Origin: Dehalococcoidia bacterium
GTDB lineage: Bacteria; Chloroflexota; Dehalococcoidia; Lucifugimonadales; UBA3495
Length of the DNA stretch: 64,000 nt
Direction: 5' to 3'
NCBI GenBank assembly: GCA_965203435.1
Contig: CBDBCU010000006.1
Location: 38,028 to 102,027, forward strand
Made by a program: the position numbers and the translations under genes
The notes under the pieces: generated by a model
Databases searched by the model: none
What the model saw: only the letters and a program-made list of their open reading frames with translations
Told to the model about the DNA's origin: nothing
Shown: positions 2,924-62,714 of the stretch, piece by piece
Layout: each line of letters starts with the position of its first letter
Numbering within the stretch: position 1 is the first letter of the stretch

Positions 2924-3426
2924 GGTGCAAGTTCCCCCGTTAAGGCTGAATAATGGCGGCGATTAACTTATAGGCATAGCCTTGAAAAGGCTCGCCCAGG
3001 CTGATGGTCAGGAAAGCGTCTCCGATCGGGTAATCGCCATCAGGTTGTTGCCGGTACCGCCGTTCCCAGACCGAGTCAGTAACCCGCAGCCAATAATCCG
3101 CGCCATTATACTGAAAACGCCCCTGCGCCCTTCGCCGGTAGTTGCCGAAATCAAGGCAATTGTATTATAAATGAATCCCATATCTGACTGAGTGCCAGAT
3201 CTTTTCCCCTTGACCAGGAAAAATCTGGATTCAAACCACAGTGTAGATAGGGATATAATGCCCCGAATTAAAACGGGATTGCCCTGAAATTGCTCATTCC
3301 CGGCGCCCTTTTTGCGTCAATTTACTGTTATAATGGCGGGACAACCTAAAGTTGCCTTGACCGGATTGAGCGGCCGAATAGCCGCCCCATCCCCATCCCT
3401 GGCATAACAACAGGAGGTAAGCCCCA

Positions 3427-59936: not shown

Positions 59937-60817
59937 CTATGCAAACCGCCGCCCGACCTTCCCGCCGCCCCTACATCATCACCGCCCTGGTATCCCTGGC
60001 CGCCATTGCCCTGGCCGTTATCGGCGCGCAGACCCTGGGCAGTGATGCCGATATTGACGCTGTCAACTACTTTGTCGAGCTATTGGCCGGCCGCTCGGCC
60101 AACTACCTCGGCGGCGTGTTCAACGCCGCCGCCCTGTTTGCCCTGGCCGCGGGGATGGCTTCGGCGGTCAATCCCTGCGGCTTTGCGATGCTGCCGGCCT
60201 ATTTGGGCTTATACCTGGGCGGCGGGACGGCTGGGGCTTCGGGCAATCCGATCCGTCACTTCCCCCGGGCTCTGCTGGTAGGGGCGTCCGTTACCGCCGG
60301 CTTTGTGTTGCTGTTTGGCGTGGCCGGCGTCATTATCGGCTTGGGCGCGTCTTTCCTGGCCCAAGCCCTGCCCTGGTTCGGCTTGATTGTGGGGATATTG
60401 CTGGCTATCGGCGGGGCTTGGCTGGTCAGCGGCGGCAAGATTTATACCGGCGTCGCCGCCCGGGCCGCCGCCCATATCGGCGAGCCTACGGAAGTGGGCA
60501 TCCGCGGCTACTTCCTCTTTGGCGTCAGCTACGGCGTAGCCTCCCTCAGCTGCACCCTGCCCATCTTTCTGGCCGTCCTGGGCCTCAGCGCCGCCAGCAT
60601 CGCCTTTCTCGAAATCCTGCTCAACTTTATCCTCTTTGCCCTGGGGATGGGCTTGGTGATAATGGCCCTGACTTTGGGAATGGCGATTTTCAAGGGGGCG
60701 ATGGTGCGTTTCCTGCGCCGCGCCCTGCCCTACATCCAGCCCGTCGGCGCCTGGCTGATGGTATTGGCCGGCGCCTACATAATCTTTTACTGGCTAACCA
60801 TCGGCGGGTTGCTGTAG
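59933..60817 (+). CDS. ccdA: Cytochrome c biogenesis CcdA/DsbD-family thiol-disulfide transporter
   Basis: ATGA overlap with the upstream stop. AVNPCGFAMLPAYLGLY and a second SLSCTLPIFLAVL half-site. Multiple TM segments. Confidence 0.8.
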   Translation: MTMQTAARPSRRPYIITALVSLAAIALAVIGAQTLGSDADIDAVNYFVELLAGRSANYLGGVFNAAALFALAAGMASAVNPCGFAMLPAYLGLYLGGGTAGASGNPIRHFPRALLVGASVTAGFVLLFGVAGVIIGLGASFLAQALPWFGLIVGILLAIGGAWLVSGGKIYTGVAARAAAHIGEPTEVGIRGYFLFGVSYGVASLSCTLPIFLAVLGLSAASIAFLEILLNFILFALGMGLVIMALTLGMAIFKGAMVRFLRRALPYIQPVGAWLMVLAGAYIIFYWLTIGGLL

Positions 60818-60868
60818 ATTGCGGGACGGCCCGGCCTTCTACCATCCTTTCCCGCCCTGTTGCCATCC

Positions 60869-61025
60869 CTCTACCGTCATTCCCGCGTAAGCGGGAATCC
60901 AGAGACGCCTACTGGTAAAGACCGGCCTGCTACCAGTCCGGCATTTCTGGATTCCCGCTTACGCGGGAATGACGGTAGAGAGGGCAGCGGGAATGACGGT
61001 AGGCAATGCGCGGGAAGGACGGCAG
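60869..61025. repeat. Family-A element, perfect full copy plus two extra right-arm fragments
   Basis: 35-nt perfect terminal inverted repeats, ctctaccgtcattcccgcgtaagcgggaatccaga / tctggattcccgcttacgcgggaatgacggtagag, at 60869-60980. Confidence 0.9.
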
Positions 61026-61044
61026 CAGAGACACCGCCATCCCT

Positions 61045-61113
61045 TTCCGCTCATCCTGTTCATCCCTGAACTTCGCCATCCCCCATCCGCTCATCCTGAA
61101 CTTGTTGAAGGAT
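61045..61113. repeat. Family-B repeats (one degenerate, one exact)
   Basis: ccgctcatcctgttcatccctgaacttcgcc, then ccgctcatcctgaacttgttgaaggatgg. Confidence 0.8.
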
Positions 61114-61119
61114 GGGCGA

Positions 61120-61955
61120 CTACCGCCCCCCTATTTCCGGGTGCGGCGCACTTTCTTTTCGCAGGTGGCGCTCCACTGGCGCATACTGATAAGCCGCGAA
61201 GGTGTGGTAGGTTGGGCCGTTCATCCAGATGAACTCGGTGTAGCCCCCCCACAGTTGCTGGGTGTTGCTGATGCTGTGGTCAAAGGGGATGGTGACGACG
61301 TTGCGGGCGGTGCGGAGTAGCCCGGGAACGGCAGTAAGGCCCGCGGCGACGGATTTGGCCTCGTTGGTCCCAGTCGGAAAGCCGACAGAGGGTCGACGGA
61401 GACGGAGAACAGATTGCCGCGGACCATTGTTCAGCGTATGGCAGCGGCTGGCAGTATTGGCACCTATTGAGTAGAGTCTAAGGGTCCCAGGGGCGATGCG
61501 ACCAGGCGGCTCGGGGTCGGCAGGGATTTTGCGCCGCACCGTCTTTACCCGCCGCCGTTCCTCCCGGGGAAACTCAAAAATCCGATCCCGGCTGACCCCG
61601 GTAATGCCCGATTCCCCATCAGTCAGCCAACCCTCTTGGGCGGCGATAAAGCCGCGGAAAATGCCTTGTTCCCCGGAATAGATGGTGTCATCCCGCTCGT
61701 TGCGGTCCTTGCCGGCTTCCCAAGTTTCGGCCTTGGTAAAGGTATCGGACTGGTCGATGCCGCAATAGAGGGTCTTGCCGCGATTTTCGGCCAGGGATTC
61801 CAGGATGGCGGTCGTGCGGTCGGCGTGGGCAAAGGCTTGCCAGTCGGAACAATCCCAGGGGATCGACCGGGCTTGGGACGCGGTTGCCCCCCCCCCCCTA
61901 TTGCGTTCATTAAAAGGAATAGGGCGATGGCGGCTACGATTTTGCGGAGGGACAT
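61120..61955 (-). pseudogene. Secreted hypothetical protein gene interrupted at a 12-nt poly-C/G tract (frameshifted or phase-variable)
   Basis: GGGAGG Shine-Dalgarno sequence and signal peptide MSLRKIVAAIALFLLMNAIGGGG in one frame. From the last G of the run (61887) a second frame is open for about 255 codons to 61120, hand-translated with no stops (ATASQARSIPWDCSDWQAF...). The track shows only its GTG-initiated tail, 61120-61539. Confidence 0.65.
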
Positions 61956-62065
61956 GGCGGTATCCTCCCGGATGGAGTTAGGGGTCTTTGGCTGACTACT
62001 AGTTTAGCAGGTTTGGCGGGCTGGTCAAGGATTTGCGGGGGTAATTTTCAGGGGAAATTTCCCTT

Positions 62066-62212
62066 TCCCTCTACCGCCCTATCTACCGTCCTTCCCGCCG
62101 CCCCTCTACCGTCATTCCCGCGTAAGCGGGAATCCGGCGGTTGCTTGTCAAGACTGCGGCATTATAAGGCAGTACCGTCGGGATTCCCGCTTACGCGGGA
62201 ATGACGGTAGCG
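62066..62212. repeat. Family-A element, half copies plus full copy
   Basis: ctctaccgtcattcccgcgtaagcgggaatccgg ... cgggattcccgcttacgcgggaatgacggtagcg. Confidence 0.85.
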
Positions 62213-62228
62213 GCGGGTGCAATCCGGC

Positions 62229-62303
62229 CATCCTTCAACCAGTTCAGGATGACCCGGCAACCCGTTCCGGGCGACCCTTCAACAAGTTCCGGGTGAGCGG
62301 AAT
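62229..62303. repeat. Family-B repeats (two, reverse orientation, degenerate)
   Basis: catccttcaaccagttcaggatgac and cccttcaacaagttccgggtgagcgg. Confidence 0.75.
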
Positions 62304-62714
62304 CTACCGCTTGGTGTATTGGGGGGCGCGGCGGGCCCGTTTCAGCCCGTACTTTTTGCTTTCCTTGATCCGGGAATCCCGCGTTACCAGCCCCCGCCGG
62401 CGCAGGGCGGCCTTCAGTCCCCCGTCATAGGCAATCAGGGCGCGGGCAATGCCGTGCCGGATGGCTTCGGCCTGGGCATTGACCCCGCCGCCGGCCACCC
62501 GGGCCACCAGCCGGAACTGGCCGCCGGTGTTGGTCACCGCAAAGGGCTCGCCCACCGTGGTCTGCCACGGCTGCCAGTTGAAATACTGCTCCAGCGGCTT
62601 GTCGTTGATCGTCGGCACCCGCCCATCGCCGGGATACAGGCGCACCTGGGCGATGGCCGTCTTGCGCTTGCCGGTTCCGTAGAAATACTGCTGCTGCCCC
62701 TCGCTCTGTACCAA
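62304..62714 (-). CDS. rpsI: 30S ribosomal protein S9
   Basis: YGTGKRKTAIAQVRL..., C-terminal RARRAPQYTKR. TTG start. Confidence 0.95.
   Translation of the reverse strand: MVQSEGQQQYFYGTGKRKTAIAQVRLYPGDGRVPTINDKPLEQYFNWQPWQTTVGEPFAVTNTGGQFRLVARVAGGGVNAQAEAIRHGIARALIAYDGGLKAALRRRGLVTRDSRIKESKKYGLKRARRAPQYTKR

Follow-up and report, generated by a model that had tools for sequence, protein, structure and literature searches.

Phase variation by homopolymer tracts is well established in pathogens and commensals with small genomes, whereas environmental or symbiotic lineages represented solely by metagenomes offer, to our knowledge, hardly any documented case. Here we analyse a run of 12 G in a predicted secreted-protein gene of an uncultured Dehalococcoidia-type bacterium, located on a 64,000-nucleotide (nt) stretch of contig CBDBCU010000006.1 (assembly GCA_965203435.1, positions 38,028 to 102,027); the whole of this stretch is referred to as the window, and homologous loci and proteins are cited by L and P numbers. 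We consider it probable that the run is a slipped-strand translational phase-variation switch in the leader of the secreted protein, and that it is OFF in the window.

Among the closest described systems, the opa genes of Neisseria form a multicopy family of exported proteins. Every copy has a promoter of its own and a repeat within the part coding for the signal peptide, by which it is switched independently of the others; in-frame length changes therefore leave the mature protein unaltered. The family described here shares these features (export being predicted and switching proposed), as well as the mixing of ON and OFF copies in one genome, L095 being ON and L088 OFF on the same 4.4-Mb contig, ctg394354. 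It differs in having a G or C homopolymer in place of the CTCTT pentamer, in comprising ~33–43 paralogues per genome of which about a third or fewer bear a tract, and in a host that is not a proteobacterial pathogen. There is no sequence relationship, with zero matches to Pfam Opacity at E<=1, and the likeness is in mechanism only.

The poly-G/C loci of Campylobacter, Helicobacter, Neisseria (hmbR, hpuA) and Bordetella, for which PMC8355987, PMC3786947, PMC1891110 and PMC2831843 serve as background, likewise carry an intragenic G/C run of ~8–13 nt near the 5' end of genes with surface or secreted functions, and length polymorphism between strains toggles their frame. Here, by comparison, the tract is fixed at the junction between signal peptide and mature protein of one expanded orphan family. 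It has been proposed that homopolymer tracts close to the 5' ends of genes serve prokaryotes in general as such a device (PMC2831843). The vlp and vsp families of Mycoplasma resemble ours in being expanded sets of paralogues in which the N-terminal export region is conserved and the C-terminal region varies, and in the control of individual members by homopolymers; a promoter-upstream poly-C tract of 5–21 nt in tract-less paralogues of our family recalls the vlp promoter poly-A. In contrast to vlp and vsp, the main switch here would be translational and not in a promoter spacer, and the proteins are not lipoproteins, having no lipobox Cys after the leader; by sequence they belong to neither the Opa nor the Vlp family. 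In the library searched, no paper connected phase variation or contingency loci to Dehalococcoidia or Chloroflexota. What is new is the family and the lineage, the mechanism itself being known.

The tract and the two reading frames of the window gene

The features of the gene are as follows.

61887–61898, minus strand: run of 12 G (read as 12 C on the plus strand), encoding the Gly3–4 c-region of the predicted signal peptide; an out-of-frame (OFF) length here
61899–61955, minus strand: signal-peptide coding part MSLRKIVAAIALFLLMNAI, n-region and h-region, by heuristic call
61964–61969, minus strand: Shine-Dalgarno sequence GGGAGG with the ATG 8 nt downstream, read directly; GGGAGG or GAGAGG in homologous loci
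62001–62028, minus strand: sigma-70-like promoter TTGACC-16 nt-TAAACT, the sole promoter-like match in 60800–62320 (0.3 expected)
61513–61887, minus strand: cleavage-site region ATASQA and conserved N-terminal domain (IPWDCSDWQAFAHADRTTAILESLAENRGKTLYCG...FEFPREERRR...ADP), intact and free of insertions and deletions (indels)
61131–61512, minus strand: variable C-terminal domain, disrupted and a part-mosaic of allele types 1 and 2, by alignment to intact homologues

The plus strand reads 12 C at 61887–61898, giving 12 G on the minus strand, where they form codons 20–23 of a leader open reading frame (ORF). This frame starts at the ATG at 61955–61953, encodes MSLRKIVAAIALFLLMNAI-GGGG, turns into a Pro/Arg-rich stretch and ends at 61623. 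Another frame, beginning at the last G (61887), continues for 256 codons without a stop to 61120, and the ORF list gives only its GTG-initiated tail (61120–61539). An earlier note on this DNA had reported the same arrangement: a 12-nt poly-C/G run at the signal-peptide/mature junction, a GGGAGG and ATG opening a leader that stops at 61623, and a second frame, open for about 255 codons, that the ORF track holds only as a tail. Our reading recovers every part of it, with the GGGAGG at 61969–61964. The note's description of the long frame as ordinary globular sequence holds for its first ~125 codons (to ~61513), which encode the conserved domain, and fails downstream, where the frame is disrupted.

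On a heuristic reading the leader shows the n/h/c layout and an SQA cleavage motif, and its MSLR(K/N)... beginning is common to the in-frame homologues P0004, P0008, P0013, P0019 and P0025; leaders of the MSLR type end in Gly3–4 in all cases. The product of the window gene is predicted to be secreted or surface-exposed. Upstream of the homologues in L001 and L002 there is an equivalent promoter, TTGAC...TATAAT/TACCAT.

Under the proposed mechanism, the 12-G run would be a hypermutable simple-sequence repeat in the c-region of a Sec-type signal peptide, and slipped-strand mispairing at replication would alter the number of G. In the ATA context, 3n+1 lengths (G10, G13) would put signal peptide and mature protein in one frame (ON), and at other lengths translation would end after a short junk peptide (OFF). 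In-frame length changes would add or remove Gly in the cleaved leader only, leaving the mature protein unaffected. Changes in tract length would presumably be frequent and reversible within populations, and we infer that the resulting variation is a form of bet-hedging of the surface or secreted repertoire.

Tract length and reading frame in relatives

A poly-G tract of G9–G13 occurs at the same junction in 15 other loci (L001, L002, L034, L083, L085–L088, L090–L096). Together with the window, the poly-G loci with DNA number 16, of which 6 are in frame and 10 out of frame.

In frame, ATA+G10: L085 (syntenic), L094
In frame, GGT+G10: L001
In frame, AT+G11: L093
In frame, GCA+G9: L095, L096
Out of frame, ATA+G12: window, L088
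Out of frame, ATA+G11: L083
Out of frame, AT+G12: L086, L087, L090, L002
Out of frame, AT+G13: L092
Out of frame, GCA+G10: L091, L034

The proportion in frame is close to the one third expected under random phase. Contingency loci are recognized by an uninterrupted repeat of at least ~8 G/C in the 5' coding region, as the 12 G are, and by length polymorphism that yields both in-frame and out-of-frame alleles, which is present at the syntenic site (G10 ON, G11 and G12 OFF) and over all loci (G9–G13). The earlier note had expected a run of 13 or 10 G to fuse the two frames. The 3n+1 arithmetic bears this out, and the syntenic relative L085 carries a natural ATA+G10 allele that fuses leader and mature protein exactly as predicted; in the window copy itself, the C-terminal half contains eight other frame breaks, so correcting the tract to 13 or 10 G would not by itself yield a normal protein.

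The tract is kept uninterrupted at this junction across ~10% nucleotide divergence. No synonymous change breaks it in any locus, except for the GGT preceding G10 in L001, although GGG accounts for only 28% of Gly codons in the genes of the window. No other homopolymer in the 64-kb window reaches 8 nt, the next longest being 7. All five C8 matches in the window overlap and come from this single tract, compared with 33.6 +/- 9.7 expected, so long runs are strongly depleted. Runs of at least 8 nt in 109 kb of ENA/JGI loci lie at the leader/mature junction in 8 of 8 cases, as do 27 of the 46 such runs in 483 kb of loci from metagenome-assembled genomes (MAGs). As judged from these assembled sequences, conservation of the tract together with its ON/OFF length polymorphism is not explained by a one-off assembly error.

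Gene callers truncate or miss tract-bearing genes: P0010, P0023 and P0091 are mis-started calls that begin within or just before the tract of OFF alleles. A search with the out-of-frame junk peptide, made to count OFF alleles, returned only four relevant matches (P0121, P0122, P0125, P0126), because out-of-frame products are rarely called. Genome contigs gave 0 matches to a DNA pattern combining the MSLR leader with the PWDC motif, and JGI metagenome contigs gave 0 usable matches to a poly-G plus PWDC pattern or in a protein-guided scan. No record matched the 139-aa ORF of the window exactly.

A poly-C subfamily

In two Dehalococcoidia MAGs, 26 of 76 paralogues carry a run of C8–C11, coding PPP, ~55 nt upstream of the PWDC motif. 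The run sits between leader and PWDC, a site equivalent to that of the poly-G tract, and its frame offset is wholly explained by the number of C and the next base.

In frame: C9G (L046, L064)
Offset +1: C9A, C10G, C9T
Offset +2: C10A, C11G, C8G

The mature ORFs of these copies have the conserved tail at their end in all but one or two cases. Two copies, L057 (CCCCTCTCC, in frame) and L060, have an interrupted run.

Selection behind out-of-frame tracts

Over the 105-codon N-domain, 36 OFF–OFF pairs have a median dN (non-synonymous divergence) of 0.054, a median dS (synonymous divergence) of 0.51 and a median dN/dS of 0.11, the last being the same as for all pairs. The N-domain of the window copy has a dN/dS of 0.07–0.15 against 12 homologues. 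Constraint maintained over a dS of ~0.5 means that these genes have been translated over evolutionary time, and therefore that the OFF state is transient or bypassed. On these rates, the out-of-frame alleles of relatives are not dead genes. Behind their OFF tracts the genes of relatives are intact, with one or two poly-C exceptions; the window copy is not intact beyond the N-domain, where it has eight extra frameshifts, which are perhaps a consensus artefact.

A bypass could take the form of recoding, in which RNA polymerase slippage or a ribosomal +1 slip restores the frame in a fraction of products, so that 'OFF' would mean constitutive low expression. The ribosomal slip would involve tRNA-Pro at CCC-C or tRNA-Gly at GGG-G, and the polymerase would slip on a run longer than the RNA:DNA hybrid. 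Recoding would suit the finding that the majority of copies with a tract, though out of frame, remain intact and subject to purifying selection, as well as the dominance of the +1 state in the poly-C group. It also gains from the intrinsic tendency of CCC-C to +1 frameshifting and from the stalling of ribosomes by polyproline. We nevertheless regard recoding as an unlikely explanation, given that programmed sites keep one fixed frame offset, whereas offsets of 0, +1 and +2, in-frame alleles included, occur here at one site. Also counting against it, neither a stop codon nor a conserved stimulatory hairpin was noted, documented cases of transcriptional slippage mostly concern A/T runs, and length change at the DNA level is directly observed among lineages. 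Recoding may coexist with phase variation, and the predominance of +1 in the poly-C group might mean that part of its decoding proceeds by +1 frameshifting on CCC-C.

Damage in the C-terminal half of the window copy

The window copy was aligned with L085, L086, L079 and L080, four intact homologues that share its C-domain type. From the ATG to 61513 there is no window-specific indel outside the tract, beside which the aligner adds one column. Between 61512 and 61185 there are 11 window-specific insertions (+1, +7, +1, +2, +2, +1, +3, +1, +6, +3, +1) and 0 deletions. Because of these insertions the conserved tail, RQWSATCEKKVRRTRK followed by the stop (61181–61131), is in another frame than the N-domain, and after codon ~125 the long open frame is native only in patches. 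Short patches of this half match the second allele type.

One reading of such damage is that the window copy is a plain pseudogene, a decaying family member whose Gly-rich linker gained or lost a base by chance and does not switch. In addition to the eight frame-breaking insertions beyond the tract and the displaced tail, a nearly invariant residue is replaced (R to Q in GERG), and the absence of the gene from the syntenic site in four relatives marks it as dispensable. Set against this, the 375-nt N-domain has 0 indels and a dN/dS that indicates constraint, and the probability that all 11 insertions fall in the next ~330 nt is (330/780)^11, or ~8e-5. Each of the 11 changes is an insertion, while deletions predominate when bacterial genes decay naturally. 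Moreover, decay of one copy leaves unexplained the uninterrupted G9–G13 and C8–C11 tracts of dozens of otherwise intact genes. We therefore doubt that the copy is a plain pseudogene, and uniform decay is ruled out by the clustered, insertion-only indels.

The clustering, the insertion-only spectrum and the second-allele patches argue against ordinary decay, and the pattern is what would be expected if co-occurring alleles of this polymorphic locus had been collapsed into one consensus. It is also possible that the window copy is a real mosaic or genuinely defective. Collapsed strain variation can corrupt the variable halves of genes in this family. The earlier note had left the choice between a switch and an assembly error, had proposed comparing orthologues for tract presence and length, and had named a lack of any homopolymer in orthologues, with decay elsewhere in the locus, as grounds for rejection. 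The comparison found the tract in other loci, in and out of frame, and the comparative data favour the switch; decay elsewhere in the locus, one half of the note's condition, does apply to the window copy.

Errors of length, chance and points against a switch

A more general form of error would have all true tracts in frame, with the OFF states, including the window G12, as artefacts of consensus calling. Homopolymers of at least 10 nt are the weakest point of long-read consensus, several loci are on long-read-style contigs, and the insertion-only, partly allele-mosaic C-terminal half, typical of a mixed-strain consensus, makes local consensus quality in this gene doubtful. However, OFF lengths occur on both scaffold-style (6 of 10) and long-read-style contigs, the platform (Illumina-like or long-read) being judged from contig names (scaffold-style as opposed to ctg..._x_l and contig_N). 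The six scaffold-style cases (L083, L086, L087, L090, L091, L092) are independent assemblies from different samples. The corrections needed run both ways (+1 and -1 or -2), and the same data sets yield in-frame tracts of the same length class (L001, L093, L094, L096). In the window, the neighbouring rpsI, rplM, truA and phosphoglucomutase genes give full-length matches to Pfam models, and a conserved, uninterrupted tract would remain even if some lengths were wrong. Length error thus strikes us as improbable. A chance origin of the tract is ruled out by its conservation at the same codon position in 15 other loci, not by composition.

Several observations weigh against the proposed slipped-strand switch. 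The comparison covers assembled sequences of lineages that are 8–17% divergent, with no near-identical pairs among them. Eight of the 11 insertions in the window copy break the frame, so the tract is not its sole lesion. A 12-C run is present in 39 of 100 dinucleotide-preserving shuffles of the window and is not improbable from dinucleotide composition alone. In the poly-C group only 2 of 26 copies are ON, 17 of 26 are in the +1 state and 12 share C9A. This scatter is below that expected from free slippage, which long-read consensus bias or +1 decoding on CCC-C could explain.

A narrow family of predicted secreted orphan proteins

The repaired window protein has 823 homologues in a large protein collection, and the family is narrow, with 90 clusters at 50% identity among 1.84 billion representatives. 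Among GTDB species representatives it occurs only in the two Dehalococcoidia MAGs, with ~43 and ~33 copies, a distribution suggesting that the window derives from a related Dehalococcoidia lineage; each copy has one promoter, and the window contains one copy. The repaired protein has zero matches in Pfam/NCBIfam at E<=1, and the window protein and three family members match nothing in Pfam, NCBIfam, PHROGs or PADLOC. Ten divergent members contain no Pfam domain, a search of the PDB by sequence gave no match, and no PDB or BFVD structure matched in Foldseek at E below 0.1. We class the family as a true orphan.

Its members consist of a Sec-type leader, an N-domain of ~115 amino acids (aa), a basic linker and a variable C-domain with a Cys-containing basic tail. 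The N-domain (IPWDCSDWQAFAHADRTTAILESLAENRGKTLYCG...FEFPREERRR) is nearly invariant and has two invariant Cys (C34 and C63 in P0002 numbering). The C-domain contains two further invariant Cys and ends in ...W(T/S)ATCEKKVRRTRR. The four invariant Cys suggest that disulfides may form. In an AlphaFold model of P0002 (m73d653b6b7b5), the variable C-domain has a pLDDT (predicted local distance difference test score) of >90; the near-invariant N-domain is not modelled (pLDDT <50).

The majority leader types lack a homopolymer, these being MPK... among the relatives of the window and MNRYRF... in the MAGs. Tract-less paralogues have their leader in frame with the mature domain, except for L060 and the remnant L078. 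A few members bear other lesions: in L072 a second C-run is cut from C6 to C4 just before PWDC (about 2990–3000), and P0123 and P0124 are MPK-type copies with a frameshift inside the N-domain. Thus some genuine decay, or some error, exists in the family.

Homopolymers upstream of promoters and a possible wider repertoire

Of the runs in MAG loci that fall outside the leader junction, about nine precede paralogues lacking a coding tract, and five of these nine represent one hypervariable poly-C tract. This tract ranges from C5 to C21 over nine paralogues (L022–L026, L038, L040, L054, L077; about 2710–2770 in each), with lengths of C5, C6, C7, C8, C9, C12, C19 and C21. It lies within a conserved upstream element, ~75 nt ahead of a TTGACA promoter that itself lies in a long hairpin, and may be a second, transcriptional homopolymer switch. 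Further long runs away from the leader junction occur in the flanks of MAG loci, at L061:916 (C26), L069:83 (G10), L012:454 (C9), L068:727 (C9) and L006:4825 (C8).

We regard as evenly balanced the broader proposition that an uncultured Dehalococcoidia lineage, perhaps associated with sponges if sample naming is a guide, possesses a combinatorial repertoire like that of Opa or Vlp. Each genome would encode ~33–43 secreted paralogues whose N-domain is near-invariant and whose C-domain is hypervariable but predicted to fold with confidence, and at least a third of them would be gated individually by coding poly-G, coding poly-C or promoter-upstream poly-C of 5–21 nt. If true, Chloroflexota would gain its first described contingency-locus system, one of large size for a non-pathogen, with a whole expanded orphan family organized around switches in a phylum without a reported case. 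It would also imply strong fluctuating selection on the cell surface or secretome, for example by phage, host or grazers. The claim is directly testable on the reads of existing metagenomes.

The rpsI-downstream locus and its cassette

An exact look-up of RplM found ten syntenic regions, in which S13...truA-rplM-rpsI is followed by a variable spot. Six of these ten relatives carry the family gene there (L083, L085–L088, L090), with tracts of G10, G11 or G12 and intact mature ORFs of 225–248 aa that have the conserved tail at their end. The other four (L081, L082, L084, L089) have in its place a gene of 361–362 aa (317 aa in L084), which in three of these regions matches Nal1_C weakly or faintly. 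These four keep a copy of the bracketing repeat, and the gene is thus subject to presence/absence polymorphism.

In the window, the gene and its promoter form a cassette of ~1.2 kb between repetitive extragenic palindrome (REP)-like sequences (CTCTACCGTCATTCCCGCGTAAGCGGGAATCC) and inverted repeats of 26–41 nt (TCATCCTGAACTTGTTGAAGGATGG), which repeat analysis places in two blocks.

62097–62301, no strand assigned: upstream block, with REP-like palindromes at 62097–62213 and one inverted-repeat arm at 62212–62301
60862–61131, no strand assigned: downstream block, with REP-like palindromes at 60862–60985 and the other inverted-repeat arm at 61086–61131

An RNA element in this region was ruled out, as Rfam gives only far-sub-threshold miRNA (microRNA)-type matches to the REP palindromes.

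The six syntenic alleles are 8–17% divergent and mosaic, with C-domains of three types. When they are compared together with the window, the nearest relative differs between the upstream region, the N-domain and the C-domain, a pattern that indicates recombination or an exchange of cassettes between members of the family. A sponge-microbiome study may be the origin of the sample prefix PANK22-1. In one sample, ERZ25070167, the syntenic locus is present in at least three states.

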